Source of the DNA: Eremomyces bilateralis CBS 781.70
Taxonomy: Eukaryota
Direction: 5' to 3' (one strand)
Length of the DNA: 63,968 bases
Assembly (NCBI GenBank): GCA_010015585.1
Contig: ML975164.1
Of this stretch, positions 5,476 through 63,968 are shown one piece after another. The notes beneath the pieces are model-generated. The model did not search any database and was not told where the DNA came from. It saw nothing but the letters and a program-made list of their open reading frames with translations. Position numbers and translations under genes: made by a program. Within the stretch, counting starts at the first letter, position 1, and each line of letters begins with the position of its first letter.

Positions 5476-8386
5476 TCAAGGAGTGACTCGGGCGCCGCCG
5501 TCGCCCTTCGCGCCCTTCACCGCCAGCATCCCCTCAACCTTCGCCCTCACCCTCGCCCCGCTCAATGGCAACTTATACTTCAACACCCCCCGCACAATCA
5601 GCTGAAACGGATGCTGAATGACCCGCTCCCACCGCTCCGTCCCCCCCGCCTCCGTCTTGTTCCCGGGCTTCATCAGCCGTAGCTCCCCCTGCGCGGCGTG
5701 GGGTTGGCGGGAGAACGGGGCGCCGTCGAAGGTGAGAGGAGAGTCGAAGTGGAAGATGCGTCCGAGGAGCATGGTTTGCGTGGTGTTGGAGGGGGGATCC
5801 GTGGGAAGGGGCGGGTCGAGGGGGGAGTCGTCGGTGGGGTGGAGGGGGGCGTTGGAGCGTTGGATGCGCCGCCGCCGCTCCGCCGTCGTGCCGATGCCGA
5901 TTTCCCCCTTGGGTGGAGACCCGCGTTCCGCACCCGACCGGCCGCCCGCGTCGTCCTCCCGTCCATCCCACCACCAGCGCTCGCTCCCCACATAACTACT
6001 CTTCGCGAAGATATTCACGTCCATCTCGCTGATGCTGATGCCTAAAAAGTTCGGATTCACCGCCTCCACCAGGAGATCCAGCATCAGCTCCTGCTCCGTC
6101 GCTAGCACGTTCTGGATCTCCACGACCGACACCCCGTAGAGCGCCTTCGTCGTCGCGAAGAGGAACCCCACGCCGCCGAACCCGACGAGTAGCAGCGCGA
6201 TCGTGACCACCACGCACACCGTCATTCCCGACGCGAACGACCGTCGCCGGTGCTGCGACCCGCGGAACTCCTGCCCGAACGGCTGCCGCGAATTACTCCC
6301 TGGGGTCCGCATCCCCCGTGAACTCCGCGGCGTTCGCACCGTCCCGACGAGCGGCGTGCGTTCATCGTCACCCTCGCCGTCCATATCGTACGAGTTCCCT
6401 AGGCCCTCGAGCTTCCGAAACCGGTTGCCGTTGCCGTTATGCGGATACTTCGGGGACGACGGCCGCGAGGAGTGGTGGGACGACAGGGTGGGGTTGATTC
6501 CCGTGGCGGTCCGCGACTTGGCGGTGCCGTGCGCGAGGAACGGTCCGTTGTCGTCGTCGAGGATCGATCCGTAGCCTTGGCCCCGCCCGCGGCTGATGTG
6601 GTGATGGTGGGCGCTACCGCCGGTGCGCGAGGCAGTGGTGCGGATGGTACCGCCGTCGGGGCGGTCCGCGCCGTCGTCTTCGGGCCCGGAGGAGGTGTAG
6701 GGGTTGTTGGTGAACTTCATGCTGCGCTTACTGGGGACGGCGCGCTGGCCGTCGAGGACGGTGCCCATGGAGCGGATGGCGCTGCGGGGGTCCGCGAGGC
6801 TGACCATAGAGGTGGCGCTGGGGGTGCGGGAATGGTGGCGACTACGGCGGGGTTGGGGTTCGGGGGGGTTGGATTCGTAGACGAAGGTCTCGTCGGAGTC
6901 AGAGGAGTCGGCTTCGTCGACTGCGTTGGCGACCTTGGCTTCGAAGACGTCTGCTTTGGATGATGCAGGTCCGGACGTCACGCTCGGTGGCTTGCGTACC
7001 ACCCGCTTCCTATCTTTCTTCGGCCGGATCGTCTCGAGGCTCGGCTTGACCCGGATCGTCCCGTTGTTGTCGTTCTTTCCGCTGGCGATCCAATCCTGGG
7101 TACTTCCGCCAAGGGGTGCCTGCGGGATTGACGCGACTGTTTCCGTTTCGACAGTCATATTCTTCGACGGACCTTCCTGCGCGCGTGTATTGGTCGCCGG
7201 GAGGTTGGTGAACGAGCTTTTTTGCCGGACAGCTTTCGGCCTGGGGGTCCTATCCGGATCATCGTCCTGCCTCGGCTTCCTATCTTTTCGTGTCTTGCTA
7301 CTACTATCGCTTCCGCTCTCAGTGGCTCTCGCGCTGCGGTCGTCGGTAAGTTCGGATTGCGATGGCGGAGATCGATAAAGAATCATCGAGTCCGTCGGGC
7401 TATAAAATCGAGTTAGCCACACGTCCTGCTATATTTACGTGCTGTAATCCCCATCTAGCGTCCTACCTTTGCAACGTAATCGACTCCACCATCGCCCCCT
7501 CATCTGGCGGACTCCCCTCCTGCACCGTCTCCAACGTCCGCGCACCACTCGCCGCCCGTCCCGCCCCGCCCTTCATCGCCGACGCCTCCGGATCCTGCGC
7601 CGACCCCTTCGCCTTCAGCGCGTCCAGATCCTCTTCCTCCACCTGCGGCGGCGTCGACGACGTGACGATCAGATTCGGCGCATCCAGCGAACCCTCGGGC
7701 TTCCGGCGCTGGGATCGCGGGCTCTGGTGGCGGGGGGTGGTCGCGCGCGAGGAGTCGGCGCTGGGGGCGGTGATGGGTTTTGCGGAGGAGCGGGGGATCT
7801 TGGAGGAGGGGTCGGGGGAGGGGGTGTTAGTCGTTGGTTGGGGGGNNNNNNNNNNNNNNNNNNNNNNNNNNNNNNNNNNNNNNNNNNNNNNNNNNNNNNN
7901 NNNNNNNNNNNNNNNNNNNNNNNNNNNNNNNNNNNNNNNNNNNNNNNNNNNNNNNNNNNNNNNNNNNNNNNNNNNGCTGTCGCGGGCGGAGCGGATGGGG
8001 CGGGAGGTGTTGGAGAGAGTGGGTTGGCGACGAGTTGGGCGGATGGGGGAGGAGTCGCGGGAGCTGAGGGTGCGGGGAGAGGTCCAGCCTGGGTTGTTGA
8101 GGGACGGGATTGTGGAGAGGGCGGTGTTGGTCGTGGTCGTGGTCGAGGATGGGTGAGAGGTGATGGACGAAGGGGGTACGGGGTTGGAAGTCGGAGGTTT
8201 CGAGGTCGCGATGGACGGAGGTACGGATGTGGAAGGAGCTGACTCTGATCGATCGGGTGAGCCATCTGGACGTGGCGATGGCCCAGTGGAAGGGTTGCTG
8301 GATGGCATAATGGAGTCGTCGTCCTTGTTCTTCTGCTTCGATGTTGCTGCTACTGCTGTCGGTTCGACTAGCGGATTGGGGGTCAT
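5476..8386 (-). CDS. VAC7: Vacuolar segregation protein Vac7 (Fab1 activator); intron 7400-7466; assembly gap 7846-7975
   Basis: SKADVFEAKVANAVDEADSSDSDETFVYESNP motif, a single TM helix (VVVTIALLLVGFGGVGFLF), then IQNVLATEQELMLDL..AVNPN and TMLLGRIFHFDSPLTF..HPFQLIVRGVLKY. Intron reads GTAGGA...GCTAAC...TAG. Confidence 0.88.
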
Positions 8387-52692: not shown

Positions 52693-54889
52693 ATGACCAA
52701 GAGAGAGCTTCCCGTTCAGCAGCTTCTCATCCTGTGTAAGGCTCCCCTCTTCGTCGCAGCTATAACCGCGCCAAACTCGAGCATCAATTCTTCATTATAG
52801 TACTGATAGGATATACCAGCGATATGTCGATTTGCCGAACCCATCTCCCTCACGAGCATCTTCCCTTACCTCCCCGAATACATCGAATCGTTTGGCATCC
52901 CCAAAGATGAAGTCGGTCGCTGGACAGGTACTATAACCCGTTTACCAGTCAAATGAAGAGGCGAGACTGTGATGCTGACGGAGACGTATAGGAATTACTT
53001 CGGCTATCTATTCCCTCTCACAATGCGTTACGGCAATACCATGGGGAAGGATATCCGACCGAATTGGCCGGAAACCCGTCATTCTTATGGGCCTTGTCAA
53101 TACGATGATCACCTCGTTGCTCTGGGGTTTCTCGGGGTCCCTTCCCATGGCTCTTGTTGCGCGCGCATTGGCGGGAGCAGGTAATGGTAATGTTGGAATA
53201 TTAAGGACCGTAGTAGCAGAGTTGGTTCCATACAAGGTAGGACGGCATGCACCCATTGCGCGACGTAGCTAACCCGATTTCGGCAGGAACTCCAACCACG
53301 TGCGTTCAGTATCATGCCTCTCGTCTACAACATCGGCACGGTCTTCGGCCCCATGATAGGAGGCGCGTTGGCAAACCCACTGCACCGCCAATACGGCGAC
53401 CCCCCCAGCGACGCCTTCCTCGCCCGGTACCCCTACTCCATCCCGAACATCGTCTCCGCCACCCTCTTCCTCATTGGAATCGCGACCGGCGTCCTCTTCC
53501 TCCACGAAACCCTCGCCAGTCGCCGCAACTCCTACGATTGGGGTCTCGCGCTCGGCGAGCGGGTCACCCAGTTCTTTAAAGATCTGTGGCATCGGTCGCG
53601 GGGCGGGGAGACGGAGCCGCTGTTGAAACACGGGACGGGGTTCTCGAGTCGGCAGAGTACGAATTTGGAGAATAGATATAATGCGCAGAATGGGGAGCAT
53701 GTGCAGGAGCCAAATCCGCCGTGGAAGGAGGTGTTAACGACGCAGTCAATCATAAATTTGATCGCATATACGTTGCTTGCGATGCACTCGATCGCGTACG
53801 ATCAGTTGCTTTCGGTGTTCATGCATCATCCCGTGCAGGATGTGAACGATCCCGAGTTTCAACCTCCGTTTAAATTTGCGGGAGGATTTGGTATCAGTAC
53901 GTTGAACCCGCTCATTATTTATTCGATACCTGGAAGACCCCACCAAATTCATTTTCTAATTACTCCCAGACTCCGACCGCATCGGCCCCTACTTCACCCT
54001 CTACGGCATCGCCTGCATGCTCTACCAATTCCTCATCTTTCCCCCCGTCGCCCGCCGCTACGGTGTCCTCCGCTGCTTCCGCATCTGCTCCCTCATCTTC
54101 CCCATCGTCTACTTCATCTCCCCTTTCGCCACACTCATGCCCACCCCTCTCGGGAAGCAGATCGTCCTCTTCATCTTCTGGCTCTTCAAAGGCCTCGCCA
54201 ATACCTTCGCCTTCCCCTGCTCCACCATCCTCCTCACCAACTCCGCCACTAGCGTCCTCATCCTCGGCACCCTCAACGGCATCGCCACCACCGTCTCCGC
54301 CGTCGGCCGCTCCCTCGGCCCCTCCTCCGCCGGCTCTCTGTTCACCTGGGGCGTCGAGAACGGCTACATCATCACCCCCTTCTGGTACCTCTCCGCCGTC
54401 ACCGTCGTCTCTGCCATCCCGACCTTCTTCCTCATCGAGGGCGCCGGGTTCGGCGACGACGCTAGCACTACCGAGGACGACGAAGTTGGATTCGACGCCG
54501 ACGCCGATGAAGAGGAGGAAGACCTAGAGCGCTGGCCAGGCTCCTCGTACGACTCCTCAGGATCCGACGACGAGGAAGCCACCGAGGCGCTTGGGCCGCT
54601 GCTGAGCCGCGAGTCGACAATGTCTGCCGGGGGGTTTTGGCGACAGACGGGGTCGCCGGTGCCGTCGTCGGTGGTGGCGAGCAGCGTGGTATCAGAGGAG
54701 GAGATTGATGAGATGGAGAGCGGGGTGGTGAGTCGACGGGGGTCGTCGTTGCCAGGGAGGAGAGGGGGGCGGACGTTGAGGCGGCGGTCGAGCGTGCCGA
54801 TTGGGATGGGGGTAGGGTTTAGGCGGATGAGTTCGAATTTGGGGCAGACGAGGAGTGGATATGGGACGGGGTCGAGTTTGGGGGGGTGA
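52693..54889 (+). CDS. Major facilitator superfamily transporter; multiple introns
   Basis: LPVQQLLIL|..CRFAEPISLTSIFPYL, WGRISDRIGRKPVI, ARALAGAGNGNVG, GPMIGGALANP..YPY, LGTLNGIATTVSAVGRSLGP. Acidic Ser-rich tail. Confidence 0.9.
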
Positions 54890-55589
54890 TGATGATGGGA
54901 GGTGGAGGGAGGCTGGAAGAGTATTGGGTTTACATTGGGTAGGGCGCATATATCATTTGTTGCACCTCAGGGATAGGGTCCTAGTTTTGGACCCCTTGTT
55001 TATCGATCTCAGGGGCATGTTCAATATGTAGCTCGTGAGGCATTTTGAGGAGTTTGTATATCTTTGGTCTATAGCATATGTAGTCTTGGGCATGTTTATC
55101 CATAATTCCTCAAGATATACTAATCCCCAATACAAGGAATTCGACCACTCTTCGATCGAGATTCATACAATGGACATCCTGCAAACCACGCTAGATGTGA
55201 GAATCGAAAGTTGATTGGCAAAGTCATTCCAGATGGCGATATAATACGACACTAACACATATAGTCTCGCAATCGGCCAATCAGCAACGCATCTCGGGTG
55301 CAACTGCGCTTAACGGTCAACAAAGTCCGAACATCCTCAACTTCTTCCCCTAAGTACAGGATCAGGCGAAACAAAGAGATCACAGGAGCTTCATTTACGT
55401 AACCCTGTCGCCTCCGTCCGTTATCGATGGCTAATTCTAACGCCGACGAAAGCCGCCGGAGGTATAAGATGGCGACAATTCCTCCCGGTCGGACTGTCAG
55501 GTGCAAGAATCTGGCTCATCCATTACGACCACCGTGTATCGCTCATTCCTGGCCTTGAATTAGGGAAAATAGTAAGCTGGTTAGGAACG

Positions 55590-55596
55590 TGAGTCA
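55590..55596. promoter_or_regulatory. TGAGTCA (Gcn4/CpcA/AP-1-type site) upstream of arginase
   Basis: Exact heptamer about 125 bp before the ATG. Function inferred only. Confidence 0.3.
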
Positions 55597-55718
55597 CGGA
55601 CTGCTATCGGTATTGCTCCCTGAGGTAGTGGGAATTTAGAAAAGTCTTCAGACGCAAGATTGCAATCGTTTCTCTGAGCACACTTTATTCAAGTAACCCC
55701 AAGTTATTCTCAGCAGCA

Positions 55719-56842
55719 ATGACGCTCCCTCCAACTGGCGAGAGTAAATTCCTCCCCTCCCGCAATGAGCTCGGCCTCGTGGCAGTTGGCTTCTCCGGCG
55801 GTCAGGTACGTACCACACCTCCTTCAGTCCCAGTTCCATTCGGCAGTTCGAAGAGCGTGCAAGAATCACTGTTAACACCCCCACAGACCAAAGCCGGCGT
55901 CGACGCTGCCCCCACGGCTCTCCTTGAAGCCGGCCTTATCCACCAACTCCAAAACGACCTCAACTACAACGTCACCTTCGACGGCCAAGTGCACACCTAC
56001 GCGGACCTTATCCCCGCCTCCGACCCACCCCACCGCAACATGCTGCGCCCGAAATCCGTCAGCGCCGTCACGCGCGCAGTGTCCTCGCAAGTGTATACGC
56101 ACGCGGCCGCGGGGCGCCTTGTGCTCACGCTCGGCGGCGACCACTCGATCGCGATCGGGACGATTTCCGGGACGGCGAGGGCGGTGCGGGAGAGATTAGG
56201 GCAGGAGATCGCAGTGGTGTGGGTGGATGCGCATGCGGATATCAATACGCCGGAGACGAGCGAGAGTGGCAATATCCATGGGATGCCGGTGAGTTTCCTG
56301 ACGGGGATGACGCGGAGTGAGGATGAGGAACGGTTTGGGTGGTTGGGGGAGGAGCATTTGATTAGTGCGAGGAAGTTGGTGTATATCGCGTTGAGGGATA
56401 TTGATCGGGGGGAGAAGGAGATTCTGAGGAGGGAGGGAATCAAGGCGTTTTCGATGCATGATATTGATCGGTGAGTGATTCTGGGAGTCATGTGGAGGAT
56501 TATGTTAGGGTGTAGAACTAACGTTGAACATGATATAGACACGGCATCGGCAAAATCATGGACATGGCACTGGGCTGGATCGGAAGTGACACCCCCATCC
56601 ACCTCTCCTTTGACGTCGACGCACTGGATCCGATGTGGGCTCCGAGCACGGGGACGCCCGTCCGCGGAGGACTAACCCTGAGAGAAGGCGACTTCATCGC
56701 CGAGTGCGTGGCGGAGACGGGGAATCTCATCGCACTGGATCTCGTTGAGGTCAATCCGAGCTTGGAAGTAACTGGGGCGCAAGAGACGGTTCGTGCCGGG
56801 TGCTCGATTATCCGATGCGCGCTGGGAGACACACTGCTGTGA
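55719..56842 (+). CDS. CAR1: Arginase; introns 55806-55886 and about 56471-56538
   Basis: GFSGGQ, LTLGGDHSIAIGT, WVDAHADINTP..SGNIHGMP, HLSFDVDALDP..PSTGTPVRGGLT.REG, LDLVEVNP. Confidence 0.97.
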
Positions 56843-57022
56843 GATGTATGATTGGGACTGGTGGAGCGGATGGGAGAGTATGAACGGAAATTCCACGGAA
56901 TGGTTGAATTAGTACACAACCGGCGACCAGCTCATCTGGGCGGCAAATGCTTATCCGTCTATCAGGTCAAGGTCGCGACGGTAACTCATCCAGCTGCTGC
57001 TGCTCCAACACCAAGGCCGACA

Positions 57023-57498
57023 TCAATTATTGGTATTGAATCTGCGAGATATTAGAGCCTTGCAGCTTCGGATATATTTCCAGTCTTTCCTACCTGTAAT
57101 TGCATTTGGGACAGCGATAAAAGATTGTAGACCCTTCGTCTGCGCCGCGCAGTTGCACGTCCTTGAACAACATAGTCGGATTCTCACAGGAGGGGCATGA
57201 TTGAGTGGTCGATGGCCACGTCTCTGCATCTTCTGACTTCATCGTCTGATTGACCGCACCACTACGCTTTTGCAGAAGAACTGACGGGAAAGCATCAGGT
57301 CTGGATCTAGTCGTAACGGACGTGAGCCACTTGTCTACGCCTAAGCTTAGCAGTGAAAACAGAGAGGCGGTATGATTCAAGCTCACTTTTATTGCAGCTT
57401 TTGCAAACATCACAAGTGATGGTCGGTTTCTCGGGAGGTATCCGATTCAGGAGACTTCCACAGCTAGTACAAAAGAGGACGGTACCGACCAGTGCCAT
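57023..57498 (-). CDS. RPA12: RNA polymerase I subunit A12.2; two introns
   Basis: N-terminal Zn ribbon LFCTSCGSLL..CDVC; TRSRPDAFPSVL; C-terminal TFIIS-like ribbon CPSC..QLRGADEGSTIFYRCPKC; last micro-exon RFNTNN*. Confidence 0.93.
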
Positions 57499-57649
57499 GG
57501 TTGATGGTTCAGATGGATATGTGGGATTTAAGCATCACGATGATCAAATTAGCGGCTACCGCTTTCGAAGTGAGGAGAGTTCGGGGGGAACTTTAAACTT
57601 AAAAATAGTAATGCGCTATACCAAATACGGGTACACTAAATCATAAGTA

Positions 57650-60600
57650 ACCTCCCTCCCTGTGTGCCGGGCGCCCCTGCGTGACGAGCTAAATCATGGG
57701 TACTTTGGCTTCAGAGCAAGCCAGACACTGCATACACATTGATATTTCTAAAGTTTTGTTTAATTTGTGTGCTGTAGCCATTCCTTAACTTCGAGACCAT
57801 TTCTACTTAAAGAATTACGGTTAGCATCGCCGCCTTCTCGCCTGATTCCCGGAGAGTCTTCTGTCATACCCTAACAGAATTCTTCCGCCAAAGCACCACC
57901 ATCGTGCCCTTACTACGTCTGAAACTCATTAAAGGCCCTTATCCGAGCCTTAGAGTCCTATAACGATGCTAGGCATCATCATCACCCTTGAGGCTGGTGT
58001 TGGGTGCAAATTTGCACAAGTTCACCACGCAGATCGGTACTTCTAATCCAAACGATGAACGATTCTGGCTAGCGCGGAACAATAATATCTACGTAATATA
58101 TACACAACCGCGATGTAATTTAACCTAGCGTATGTACGGAGTACGTAATCATATTTGCCAAGTCTGTGGCTGTTTTACCTGTAGCTGCCGCAGTCTAATC
58201 ATTCCTGGCGGACATAGCAATTCACTCTGTGCAGAAACACGAACGCCAGTTAGGCAGGGTTGGTCAACATGCAGAACTGGAAGTCCTCTGATTGACACCT
58301 GAGCAAAGTGCTGTCGCAAGCGGCCTGATTTCCCCTAGGGCAGCACCTATGCTTATGGATGCTTCATATGCTTCTAATCAGCTGCAAGAGATGTGAGCGA
58401 CTGGGAAAAACGCGTCGACACTTGCCATTGGACGCCACGCGACAGTATTAGCAGCCTTGTTCTTGTACGACCAGCCAGTCGAGGCGTGCATTCGCGTCCG
58501 ATCAAGGCACAAAATGCAAGGCTGAGGTCGCCGAGAACAAGCTGTGATGTGACGGCTACGAAGCGCAGCCTCGTGCTAAAGCTTATAATGGCCTTTCGCC
58601 GCCTCTTATGCTCGTCGTCCTCCGTCAAGTGAAGTAGAAAGCCTCGAACCGATTCCGGACGTTTCGCGACACTTTGGCTGTGTGGACGTCGTTCGAATCC
58701 CGCACTTTAACCATGGCGTCGTCTGGATGGCGGCGACTGATTCCATCCCGAAGCAAGCGTAAGGATGCTGTATGATGACTCCCATTCCATGCCTCTGTCA
58801 GGCTGACTTTGGTAGGTTAGCGAACCTTCGAAGCCGAAAAATCCTTTTGAGGCTCCTGCTCAAGGTCTCAAAGTAGTGGAGGAGGGAGAGCAGCCGGTGA
58901 TAGAGTAAGCCATCCGTAGCATAACAAACGCCCGCACTGACAGCTCCTAGCATCGTTGCTGTCCATGGATTGAACGGGCACCGCGACAAGACCTGGACGG
59001 CCGTGAACGGCGTGCACTGGCTCCACGATCTCCTGCCGACCGATATCCCGAACGCGCGCGTCTTCTGCTGGGGATACGATGCGAACACGCATGGCGACCG
59101 CGTCAGCTGCCAATACCTATACGACCATGCAAGACAATTGGTGTCGGATCTGTGCCTTCAGAGAAGGCTTACAAAGGTATGGACACAGGCAGTAGTTAAA
59201 GGTGAAACTGACCGTGGCAGACAACGCAACGGCCAATTATCTTTGTGGCACACAGTCTAGGTGGGATCATAGTCAAGAGCGTAAGCCTCGTATATATCTC
59301 TTATCTGCGTAGCTAACCAAGCGAGGCTCTCATCCACTCGGACGCGGCACGTAAAGGCGCGCTAGCAGAACATCGGTCGATTACGACGTCGACATACGGG
59401 ATCATGTTCATGGGCACGCCTCACCAAGGCGGCAGCGGAGTGCAGCTAGGGAAGCTGCTGATCAATGTGGCATCAGTGTTTATAGCTGCAGACGACCGGC
59501 TAATGAAGCATCTCGAGCAGAACTCGGAATGGCTTCAACAGCAGCTTGGGCAGTATAATCCGATCAGCAGCAAGTTTGTAACAAAGTTTGCGTACGAGGA
59601 GTACAAGACGCCGACGGTGCTGGGTCATTCAATTATGGTATGGTCTTGCTTCTGTTGTAGAATACAAAAGGCTGACAGCATAGGTGGTACCACTTGCATC
59701 AGCGGTTGTTCCTGGTGCCGCCGACGCAGAGCCGATCGCCATCCACGCAGACCACATCAACATGACCAAGTTCGCGTCGAAAGAAGATAATGGATATAGA
59801 ACTGTGTCGGGGCATCTGCGAATCATGGCTGAGAGTGCGGGCGAAGCCATCGTCTTACGGTGGGCAGAGGAGGGTAGGGTCGATGCTGGTATGTAGCGCC
59901 AGTGTATAACTATCAAGAATAGTAATAACAGTAGCTGTGTGTAGCGCGTACTAACTCTGAAGAGAGCTTTCGTGTCGTCTTTAGCTTGCCTGAGGCCTCT
60001 GAGACCGATCACTTTGTTGCAAGACAAGCGGAGCTCGCTGCAATGCATAAGGCGCTCAGCGAGGGTACCGGCCGACAAGCAGTCACTCTGCACGGTCTAG
60101 GCGGGATTGGCAAGACACAGCTGGCAATTGCATACGTCAAAGCGCACCGTGACGACTATTCGGCAATATTCTGGCTGAACATCAAAGACGAAGTGTCAGT
60201 AAAGCAGAGCTATTTGCGGTTAGTAAGACGGATCTTGCAGGAACATCCATCGGCCAGCCAGCTTAGTGGAATCACGGAGGACAGCAAACCCGACGAAGCA
60301 GTGGCAGCAGTCAAGCGATGGCTAGAGCATGGCAAGAACACGCATTGGTTGATAATGTTAGATAATTACGATAACCCCAAGGTTCCAGGTAACGCGGATC
60401 CTGGTGCGGTCGACATCCGGCAGTTTCTGCCTGAGGCATATCATGGCTCGGTAGTTGTGACAACGAGATCGTCGAAAGTCAGTATCGGCCATCGCATAAA
60501 GGTAGGGAAGCTGGAAGATATAAGGGACAGCCTTCAGATACTCTCTAATGCCTCACACCGTGAGGACGTTATCGACAGTTAGTTAGATTCGGTTGCTAGT

Positions 60601-63091
60601 TGAAGAAGCAGCGCTTACACCATTAGATCCTGACGCAGCCGAACTTGCTAGAGAGCTGGATGGCCTACCGCTGGCCTTGGCTACGGCGGGCGCCTACCTT
60701 GACCAGGTGGCGACAAGCTTTGCTGCCTACCTTCGCCTGTACAGAGCATCATGGCTGAAGCTGCAACAGACGAGTCCCCTCGTAAGCAGTTACGAGGACC
60801 GGCGACTGTACTCGACATGGCAGCTATCATTCGAACATATCAAGCAGCAGAACGAGCTATCGTCAAGACTGCTTCAGCTATGGGCATACTTTGATAATCA
60901 AGATCTGTGGTTCGAGCTTCTGCAAGAAGGAAGGTCTAGCGGTCCGGACTGGCTTCGTCAACTCACGCAGGACGAGCTGAGCTTCAACGAGGCGGTAAGG
61001 GCTCTGTGTGATTACGCGTTGGTGGAAGTGGACAGGTCCTCTAGAGGAAGCGTTGAGTCTCAAGGGTACGGGATGCATAGTTGTGTGCACTCATGGACGG
61101 TGTATGTAGTCAACCAAGAATGGGATTCTAAGATGGCCGAGGTAGCTCTGGAGTGTGTGGGCAGCCATGCGCCAGAGGTTAATGCACAGCACTCCTGGCT
61201 GACTCAGCGTCGGCTGTTGCGACACTTAACCAAGTGTTGGGGGTTTATTATCGACGGCAGACTAGATGACGATGGCAAGGACTGGATTCTGTACAACTTC
61301 GGATATATATATTCGAGTCAGGGAAGGTTTGAAGAGGGGGAGAAGATGTACTTGCGAGCGCTGCAAGGCAAAGAGAAGGCATGGGGACCAGAGCATACAT
61401 CAACACTCNNNNNNNNNNNNNNNNNNNNNNNNNNNNNNNNNNNNNNNNNNNNNNNNNNNNNNNNNNNNNNNNNNNNNNNNNNNNNNNNNNNNNNNNNNNN
61501 NNNNNNNNNNNNNNNNNNNNNNNNNNNNNNNNNNNNNNNNNNNNNNNNNNNNNNNNNNNNNNNNNNNNNNNNNNNNNNNNNNNNNNNNNNNNNNNNNNNN
61601 NNNNNNNNNNNNNNNNNNNNNNNNNNNNNNNNNNNNNNNNNNNNNNNNNNNNNNNNNNNNNNNNNNNNNNNNNNNNNNNNNNNNNNNNNNNNNNNNNNNN
61701 NNNNNNNNNNNNNNNNNNNNNNNNNNNNNNNNNNNNNNNNNNNNNNNNNNNNNNNNNNNNNNNNNNNNNNNNNNNNNNNNNNNNNNNNNNNNNNNNNNNN
61801 NNNNNNNNNNNNNNNNNNNNNNNNNNNNNNNNNNNNNNNNNNNNNNNNNNNNNNNNNNNNNNNNNNNNNNNNNNNNNNNNNNNNNNNNNNNNNNNNNNNN
61901 NNNNNNNNNNNNNNNNNNNNNNNNNNNNNNNNNNNNNNNNNNNNNNNNNNNNNNNNNNNNNNNNNNNNNNNNNNNNNNNNNNNNNNNNNNNNNNNNNNNN
62001 NNNNNNNNNNNNNNNNNNNNNNNNNNNNNNNNNNNNNNNNNNNNNNNNNNNNNNNNNNNNNNNNNNNNNNNNNNNNNNNNNNNNNNNNNNNNNNNNNNNN
62101 NNNNNNNNNNNNNNNNNNNNNNNNNNNNNNNNNNNNNNNNNNNNNNNNNNNNNNNNNNNNNNNNNNNNNNNNNNNNNNNNNNNNNNNNNNNNNNNNNNNN
62201 NNNNNNNNNNNNNNNNNNNNNNNNNNNNAGGCGGAGAAGATGTACTTGCGAGCGCTGCAAGGCTTTGAGAAGGCACTCGGCCAAGAAGCGGCGAAGACGT
62301 ATATACCGGCGCTCAACACAGCTCAGAATATGGCCAATATCTTTCAGCAGACAGGCAGAGTGCGGGAAGCGGAGGAACTATGTGGACAGGCTCTCCTTGG
62401 TGTTGAAGCGGTTTTCGGACGCTTGAGCGACAGATATCAAAGTCTTAGTTTAGCTTTGGACGCACTGCGCAGTAACAGTGAGCGCGATATCAATTGCTAG
62501 CTCTAATGCAATCATAACTTAATTAATTTGCATTTACGTATCTACTATAGTCACTACTCGCGGCCTCCCTACGCTCTATGGTGTTAAACAGGAGAAGGAG
62601 GCAATTTTGAAAGTAATTCCTACCCATCTAGAACGAGTTTTTCTTGATCAGCCTAGCGCTGGTCGCGTCCTGAAAACCGCGCAACATTGCAGTATCGTTC
62701 ATTTGGCATATCATGGACTCACTGTGTCGATCCATCCAGAGGTAGCACAGCCACATCGGTAGTGATTATGTCCAGCATCGTTGTAGGACTCTAGGGCTCG
62801 GATAAGGACTTTTAATGGGTTTTAAAAATAATAAGGGCACGATGGTGGTGCCTTCGTGGAGGAATTCTGTTGCGTAGTGAAGGAATAGTCTCCGGAAATC
62901 GGGTGAAAGGGCGGCCACGATAACGTAATTTTTTGAGTAGGAGGGGACTCGAAGTTAAGGAATGGCTATAGCGCACGATTTAAACAGAACTATAGAAATA
63001 TCAATGTGTGCATAGATTCTGGCTTGCTCTGAAGTCGAAGTACCTATGGTTTGGCCCGGCACGCAGGGGTGCCCGGCATAGGGAGGGAGGT
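57650..63091. mobile_element. Putative non-autonomous TIR transposon (about 345-bp TIRs, TA flanks) carrying an NLR gene
   Basis: TA|ACCTCCCTCCCTGTGTGCCGGGCGCCCCTGCGTG.. at 57648 and ..CACGCAGGGGTGCCCGGCATAGGGAGGGAGGT|TA at 63093. Arms 57650-~57995 and ~62748-63091 align as reverse complements, roughly 75-80% identical by eye. Confidence 0.75.
58713..62500 (+). CDS. Fungal NLR: SesB-like alpha/beta hydrolase + NB-ARC + TPR repeats; about 7 introns; assembly gap 61409-62228
   Basis: DIVAVHGLNG..TW..WLHDLLP..ARVFCWGYDA, nucleophile elbow IIFVAHSLGG, IMFMGTPHQG, MVPLASA..DHINMTKF. Walker A LHGLGGIGKTQLA, Walker B WLIMLDNYD, VVVTTR, LDGLPLALATAG, YGMH. TPR EKMYLRALQGKEKAWGPEHTSTL. Confidence 0.92.
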
Positions 63092-63558
63092 TAGAGATTC
63101 GGTATTATTACATGATATCCTAAAGCAGCCTCGCAACACGTTCGCAACGCATTTAAGCTTTGCACTCCTTGCTGACCTGGCCACGGCTTCCTAGTCAAAC
63201 AGAGCTACCCTCACAAAACTGATATTAAAACATGATATTACTACCACTGCGATCGATTCAAAAATATCAGTCAAAAGTAAGGACTCTAAGCACAAGTACT
63301 CTTGCAAGTTGCGACAGGATGTCCTTAACTTGTCATATTCAGGACGAATAACCACCAGTGGAGGCTGGAGGTTTGAAACAATTGTAAATTACCACTAACT
63401 ACCAAATCAGACTCTCTAAGTTAACTAATCTTGGCCCAGACTAACGAGCGATCAACTGACCGTACATTTGAGATTTATCCCTTCTGAATAATCAAAAGCG
63501 GGTGCCTTTCGACCACAGCAACCCTAGCCGACAGCGCCAGCGTCCTCCTGCCCTCTGC

Positions 63559-63968
63559 TTATTCTATTTTGCGAGCGTCTCGTTGCTCTGCCTCCCAATC
63601 CGCCAATATATTCGAGGAAGAAATGAAGTACGGATGGCTGGTACCTAGAACCTGTTCTTGAAGCCGTACACACTCCATCATTAGACCTATAGCCTCCGTA
63701 TCTCGGCCCTGCGCTTTCCACGTCGACGTCAGGTTGGCCATGCTGGTCAGCGTGGAAGGATGCTCTGCGCCGAGTACCCTTGAGCATATATTTAACTCAT
63801 CCGCTTGCAGCTCTTCGGCCTCCTTCCATCGGCCTTGACCCCTATACGTCGACGCCAGGTTGGCCATGCTGGTCAGCGTGTCTGGATGCTCTGCGCCAAG
63901 TACCCTCTTTCTCGTCTCCATAACTTGCATCTCTAGCTCTTCGGCCTCCTTCCATCGGCCTTGATTCC
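63559..63968 (-). CDS. 3' end of a TPR-repeat (kinesin-light-chain type) protein, probably a second NLR; runs off the window
   Basis: 42-aa units EAEELEMQVMETRKRVLGAEHPDTLTSMANLASTYRGQGRWK. A 126-bp DNA repeat is visible (CTCTTCGGCCTCCTTCCATCGGCCTTGA at 63811 and 63937). Terminal cap ECVRLQEQVLGTSHP. Confidence 0.85.
   Translation of the reverse strand, partial: NQGRWKEAEELEMQVMETRKRVLGAEHPDTLTSMANLASTYRGQGRWKEAEELQADELNICSRVLGAEHPSTLTSMANLTSTWKAQGRDTEAIGLMMECVRLQEQVLGTSHPYFISSSNILADWEAEQRDARKIE

Follow-up and report, generated by a model that had tools for sequence, protein, structure and literature searches.

A stretch of 63,968 nucleotides from the fungus Eremomyces bilateralis CBS 781.70 (assembly GCA_010015585.1, contig ML975164.1; the whole stretch is hereafter called the window) contains, at 57650-63091, a single gene for a NOD-like receptor (NLR) that lies between two terminal inverted repeats (TIRs). 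In its anatomy this locus matches a Pack-like non-autonomous element that encloses a complete NLR gene. We give roughly an even chance to the reading that the locus is one old TIR element without a transposase, the interior of which came to hold the NLR gene in the manner of Pack-type transposons. The following observations are among those in favor of this reading. The TIRs belong to a family with further copies in the genome and with a homologous end in another organism. A host gene is found between two TIRs of that family, and no transposase accompanies it. Finally, there is a breakpoint at about position 58664 at which family sequence gives way to the segment with the gene.

Inverted repeats and the family they belong to

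The left arm occupies 57650-57996 on the plus strand and the right arm 62748-63091 on the minus strand. It had been predicted from inspection of the window that two arms of about 345 bp are reverse complements of each other, and this is borne out by blastn, which aligns positions 1-347 of the left arm with 63091-62748 at 80.9% identity over 350 columns (E 8.8e-74). A repeat search of the window resolves the same relationship into two inverted pairs, 57665-57819/62924-63078 at 83% and 57820-57996/62748-62924 at 78%. The best unrelated blastn matches of either arm in the 64-kb window are 14-21 nt long, with E values of at least 0.045. An alignment of the two arms over 347 columns contains 278 matches, 45 transitions, 21 transversions and three gap columns. 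Repeat-induced point mutation (RIP) was considered as the cause of this divergence and rejected; there is no clear signal of it in the transition to transversion ratio of 45:21, and the RIP indices are unremarkable.

The outer end of both arms is ACCTCCCTCCC, with TA immediately beyond each. On the left this TA, at 57648-57649, is a possible target-site duplication, and on the right, at 63092-63093, it is read directly beside the terminus; a shared terminus with TA outside was also part of the original prediction. That prediction further held that both arms carry a subterminal motif, doubled in the right arm, and we find the same arrangement. The left arm has a single TGCCGGGC motif, at 57665-57672, next to a degenerate second copy that now reads TGACGAGC. 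The right arm has two, which appear as the reverse complement GCCCGGCA at 63054-63061 and 63071-63078. The terminus pattern combined with TGCCGGGC occurs twice in the window and in none of 100 shuffles. TA stands outside all three of the ends that can be read, that is, the two in the window and one in the metagenome locus L009 described below, and it is also present in the consensus of the loose-end contigs that leave the right arm. TTAA and TWA were tried as targets in place of TA and rejected: TTAA fits one of the three ends, and TAA and TTA are mirror images and not a direct repeat.

No matching second terminus accompanies either arm. All 10 local alignments of the arms and their inner parts with neighbouring sequence fall within the range of shuffles, and no second terminus was found inside or beside the arms. 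Thus, as had been supposed, the arms are not two complete miniature inverted-repeat transposable elements (MITEs), each of which would have two termini of its own. It also follows that, if the arms do represent separate copies, both of these copies are truncated.

To look for further copies of the arm, contigs of sequencing runs were aligned on 54500-63968 at 80% likeness, two of these runs, X1 and X2, probably being those of the source sample. The depth summed over contigs does not equal copy number, and we read it solely as an indication of several further copies. The single-copy flank has a depth of 152.5 in X1 and 225 in X2. By comparison, the left-arm bin 57660-57975 reaches a summed depth of 1293 and 2356, respectively, or 8.5-10 times the flank, and position 57744 reaches 1873 and 2975, or 12-13 times the flank. 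The source contigs break at 57763, 57876, 58285 and 58562. At 63078, four contigs in each run leave the right arm and contain the family terminus, then TA, then sequence foreign to the locus (agreement 0.79), although the left arm of the window itself probably accounts for one of them. The probable-source contigs thus contain several further copies with the same terminus and TA and with differing flanks. The summed depth of these copies is 5-12 times that of the flank, a rough guide to their number, and their termini run into different flanking sequences. Inverted repeats with a sharp, conserved terminus are found in the arms of the window, in the four loose-end contigs and in L009. We conclude that there is a genuine multi-copy TIR family, that its terminus beside TA is conserved, and that the two arms are ends of it. 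The two arms are not equally typical of this family. The right-arm bin 62716-63031 has 1.6 times the depth of the flank as compared with 8-10 times for the left-arm bin, which indicates that the right arm resembles the other copies of the family less closely than the left arm does.

A related end is present in another organism. When metagenome contigs were scanned for the terminus pattern, 13 loci came up, and 12 of these share nothing with the element beyond the pattern itself (25 bp only in L010). The remaining locus, L009, has a length of 1340 bp, too little to reach an interior or a second end, and has TA followed by a homologous terminus. Over the terminal 73 bp L009 has an identity of 85% with the right arm and of 75% with the left arm, and the rest of the arm is collinear at 61-64% (E 1e-17 and 1e-22 under relaxed scoring). 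On the left side only, homology extends past the inner edge of the arm: positions 901-959 of L009 are homologous to 58021-58082 of the window, with a local score of 22 compared with 11.1 +/- 1.3 for shuffles, none of 200 of which reached that score. The conservation of both the element end and the left inner block between organisms fits a functional transposon end and not a local duplication. Upstream of its transposon end, at positions 1-536, L009 also contains a dense array of direct and inverted repeats with a unit of about 20-70 bp (TAAGGGCACAGC...GGTAAGTG) and 19 inverted pairs.

The NLR gene and its boundary with family sequence

The only gene between the arms is the NLR gene, at 58713-62500 on the plus strand. 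It encodes an N-terminus of the alpha/beta-hydrolase type (DUF676/SesB-like), an NB-ARC domain and TPR units in eight exons. The exons were joined with reading frames, canonical GT..AG introns and homologues as a guide, and they lie at 58713-58769, 58816-58904, 58951-59176, 59221-59280, 59326-~59640, ~59684-59890, ~59935-60579 and ~60620-62497, the last being followed by the stop codon. All eight splice in frame and are open wherever they can be read. Pfam recognizes NB-ARC (E 6e-10), TPR_10 (E 4e-7) and TPR_12 in the product, and the N-terminal exon pieces alone have no Pfam match at E 0.01. The N-terminus is 74-76% identical to that of the homologue P0007, for which the domain PF05057 (DUF676-type serine esterase) is precomputed, and the AHSLGG motif is kept. 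NB-ARC, TPR and an N-terminal effector domain are thus all present, as in fungal NLRs of the STAND NB-ARC-TPR kind. The Pfam matches, the likeness to P0007 and the joined exons uphold the earlier description of the locus as one SesB-like hydrolase/NB-ARC/TPR gene with in-frame exons. In a third sequencing run (X3), the contigs of which do not cover the flank at 54500-57343, there is an NLR relative that is 83% identical over 58884-59743.

Within the TPR array, 61409-62228 (820 bp) consists of N, and this part of the array consequently cannot be read. The source contigs break off at 61368 and start again at 62234, and direct repeats at 61335-61392 and 62229-62286 (84%) stand on either side of the gap. 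Near-identical TPR units probably interrupted the assembly here, and the gap may explain why the NLR is missing from the protein database, in which there is no 100% match to it. A further run of 130 N is found in the window at 7846-7975.

The original prediction had noted that no transposase is visible, and the searches made here agree with it. No transposase-like open reading frame (ORF) lies inside the element in the ORF list of the window. Coding remnants of a transposase were likewise absent from the arms, the inner region and L009, where 13 ORF pieces have no Pfam match at E 0.1.

Between the left arm and the gene lies a non-coding inner region that is shared by the family, at 57997-58664 on the plus strand, and this region forms the entire upstream region of the NLR gene. 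Nine ORF pieces scanned for it have no Pfam match at E 0.1. In X1 the bins across 57976-58607 have summed depths of 773-916 compared with 152.5 for the flank, or 5-6 times as much, and 58057-58664 is covered by several contigs at 2-3 times baseline depth with small indels. One contig of 545 bp, the depth of which is about 2.5 times the baseline, agrees with 58284-58664 and goes on for another 165 bp with sequence unlike anything in the window. Farther inward, at 58924-60819, the depth is 161-176, that is, there is no extra copy. The continuation of the 545-bp contig into other sequence, together with the single-copy depth beyond, places the breakpoint between family sequence and NLR segment at about 58664, which is 49 bp upstream of the NLR start codon at 58713. 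The left family repeat accordingly continues for about 670 bp inward past the arm and supplies everything upstream of the gene. The original prediction took the family sequence to be the arm of about 345 bp. That description is too short on the left, where contig depth and the 545-bp contig carry the family sequence to about 58664. At the other end of the gene, the 247-bp spacer (62501-62747) that separates the stop codon from the right arm has a depth of 176.6, all of it from the contig of the locus itself, and no extra copy of this spacer at a likeness of at least 80% is found in the source contigs.

One element or a resident gene between two insertions

We propose that 57650-63091 would represent a single old copy of a non-autonomous DNA transposon with TIRs of about 345 bp, both arms being parts of the same element. 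The foreign segment at 58665-62747 would then hold one complete NLR with a 5' flank of 48 bp and a 3' flank of 247 bp, and the NLR would occupy the place where other members of the family carry an interior of their own. The retention of introns suggests that the gene was taken up at the DNA level, as in Pack-type elements of plants, and the left inner region is predicted to serve the NLR as promoter. A transposase encoded elsewhere may bind the repeated subterminal units that contain TGCCGGGC, cut at TA, and could in this way move the unit of 5.4 kb. Given the arm divergence of 19%, however, this copy is probably no longer mobile. The geometry of the locus speaks for a single element. The arms face outward, the homology between them ends equally far from each terminus, and between them there is precisely one gene, the flanks of which are very short. 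If about 10 arms are scattered over a genome of about 35 Mb, we estimate that two independent outward arms would be expected within 5.4 kb in far fewer than one case in a hundred.

The strongest alternative, which we consider possible but doubtful, is that a resident NLR gene lies between two unrelated insertions. In that case a truncated copy of the family would have inserted in the promoter (57650-58664), an older copy in the opposite orientation would have decayed to a solo arm (62748-63091), and nothing would move as a unit. Several observations speak for this alternative and, for the same reason, weigh against a single element. First, TA cannot be used to pair the arms because it is expected beside the ends of independent insertions too. 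Second, the left arm is closer to the rest of the family than the right arm is (8-10 times the baseline compared with 1.6 times), which would be odd if they had arrived together. Third, no second copy of the NLR at a likeness of at least 80% is found in the source contigs (depth 161 compared with 152 for the flank), although contigs can hide copies. The NLR body being single, neither a donor gene nor a transposed duplicate is seen, and the transposed unit that a Pack-type element should have left, as a second copy or as a donor gene, is missing to the extent that this weak negative result allows. The original claim of a Pack-type carrier of NLR genes thus stands in part: the multi-copy TIR family, the whole gene and the lack of a transposase agree with it, and the search for a second copy of the gene lends it no further support.

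Fourth, the descent of the NLR appears to be vertical. The region from NB-ARC to TPR is 78-80% identical to NLRs of Pleosporales and 57-59% identical to two paralogues from the same genome in the protein database. A tree was built from 29 rows after six of 35 had been dropped as shorter than 390 aa. In this tree the sister group of the NLR comprises six proteins of Pleosporales together with one unnamed protein, and a protein of Venturiales lies outside (supports 90/85 and 92/94, none starred). This topology fits an old, vertically inherited resident gene and is as expected from descent within Dothideomycetes. Horizontal transfer of the NLR was considered because of the contrast between its identity of 78-80% to Pleosporales and the far lower identity of Vac7 to other fungi, but it is not supported, given that the NB-ARC-TPR family is slow-evolving and that the tree puts the gene outside the Pleosporales clade and not inside it. 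Since the tree is as expected from vertical descent, the high similarity among these NLRs is not evidence of transfer. The lineage itself is isolated: the Vac7 ORF of the window is 100% identical to a protein listed by NCBI for Eremomyces bilateralis CBS 781.70, and its next-best match, in any other fungus, is at most 53% identical. We also observe that the NB-ARC-TPR lineage of the gene (59935-61408) is unusually conserved, with an identity of 56-61% to NLRs from other classes of fungi and of up to 80% to those of Pleosporales.

A resident gene would furthermore be in keeping with the situation in Podospora, where the 2-kb flanks of NLRs with high internal conservation contain more transposable element (TE) sequence than those of other genes, according to the available part of PMC13449251. 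Yet under this explanation both copies must have been truncated, one of them precisely where the inverted repeat ends on its inner side, and two outward insertions of a low-copy family must have occurred within 5.4 kb around exactly one gene. Moreover, the terminal 73 bp of the right arm resemble the outgroup L009 more closely (85%) than do those of the left arm (75%), which argues that the right arm is not simply an older copy.

We consider it unlikely that the locus is a recombinant or chimera in which ectopic recombination or gene conversion renewed the left 1 kb, so that the NLR became enclosed without any mechanism of capture. The starting point could have been either a complete element or two copies placed by local hops. 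The left part shares exact 31-mers with other copies, because contigs break there, and the right arm lies on a unique assembled contig that extends over 62234-63616. Active exchange of DNA in the region is apparent from neighbouring NLRs with near-identical TPR units. All of this would suit such a recombinant, which the data do not set apart from the single-element reading, but we saw nothing that would mark a recombination joint directly. Lastly, a non-mobile local inverted duplication around the gene, with no transposition at all, would explain solely the arm pair within the window and is highly improbable, as it is already contradicted by the further genomic copies with the same sharp terminus and different flanks and by the homologous end in another organism.

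Related mobile elements and neighbouring sequence

The preferred reading of the locus as one Pack-like TIR element raises the question of its kinship. Tc1/mariner-pogo elements have TA as their target, and the repeats of Fot1-type elements are far shorter than arms of 345 bp. TA beside the termini fits Tc1/mariner-pogo and is the single basis of this assignment. The element resembles members of that group (Fot1-like) in having TA beside both termini and repeated subterminal motifs in its inverted repeats. It differs from them in that no DDE or pogo transposase is found in the element or in the 1.3 kb of L009. TA itself is a candidate target-site duplication.

Pack-TYPE transposons, that is, Pack-MULE and Pack-CACTA, have been described for plants (PMC8903248). 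According to the excerpts of this source, they share with the present locus the structure of a non-autonomous TIR element without transposase, with host coding DNA inside and with other copies of the TIR family elsewhere. In contrast to these plant elements, the locus described here holds a whole intron-containing gene and not gene fragments, the host is a fungus, TA is found in place of a duplication of 9 bp or 3 bp, and no parental copy is seen. In fungi, the 14-kb hAT-type element ToxhAT contains ToxA in wheat pathogens (PMC6737239, PMC12506042), and a housekeeping gene amplified by a transposon is another case of a gene-carrying class II element (PMC6710886), as far as the accessible portions of these papers go. 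ToxhAT is likewise a fungal class II TIR element with a complete non-transposon gene. It is a hAT element with several genes and with documented horizontal transfer, whereas the element studied here has one gene, another type of end and no evidence of transfer.

Starships are fungal mobile elements that often have NLR genes as cargo (PMC9156397, in the sections available). The present element is like them in being fungal and in having an NLR gene as its interior. Starships are, however, 77-195 kb long (four named examples) and have a DUF3435 captain at one end, and the locus described here measures 5.4 kb and has long TIRs and no captain. No tyrosine-recombinase captain with DUF3435 stands at its 5' end, the NLR being the only gene between the arms.

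Repertoires of fungal NLRs are patchy and have a fast turnover. In the parts of PMC9156397 and PMC13449251 that were accessible, the giant Starship class is the only mobile carrier named for fungal NLRs. That TEs might move NLR genes is remarked in the accessible text of PMC13449251, beside a statistical link of some NLRs to TE-rich flanks. We found no description of a small TIR element with an NLR in fungi in the literature outside subscription journals. Tentatively, and with less confidence than we place in the Pack-like reading of this one locus, we suggest that small TIR elements could be a recurrent vehicle for whole fungal NLR genes. The ends and the promoter-bearing inner segment would act as a chassis that takes up single NLRs and moves or duplicates them within, and perhaps between, genomes, by a route separate from that of Starships. 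If this is true, a cut-and-paste cassette of 5 kb with one receptor and a built-in promoter would provide a simple mechanism for the gain, loss and relocation of single NLRs.

The sequences on both sides of the element have features of their own. On the right, 63559-63966 (minus strand) is the tail of a second NLR, which is arranged tail-to-tail with the first and has a TPR_10 match at E 4e-35 and direct repeats with a period of 126 bp. The summed depth of this segment is about 100 times that of the flank (15923 compared with 152.5), which points to a family of near-identical TPR units that is very large in this genome. The right flank at 63100-63660 corresponds to the 3' region of this second NLR and recurs in about two other contigs, with a depth of 301 in two contigs at 63156. 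These contigs may represent paralogous sites without the element, the right-arm bin having almost no extra depth. On the left, 56999-57484 is an RPA12-like gene region with a Pfam match to the zinc-ribbon of TFIIS (E 1.5e-13). A second copy of this region, about 82% identical (87 differences in 486 bp), is present in the source contigs on a contig of 1521 bp.

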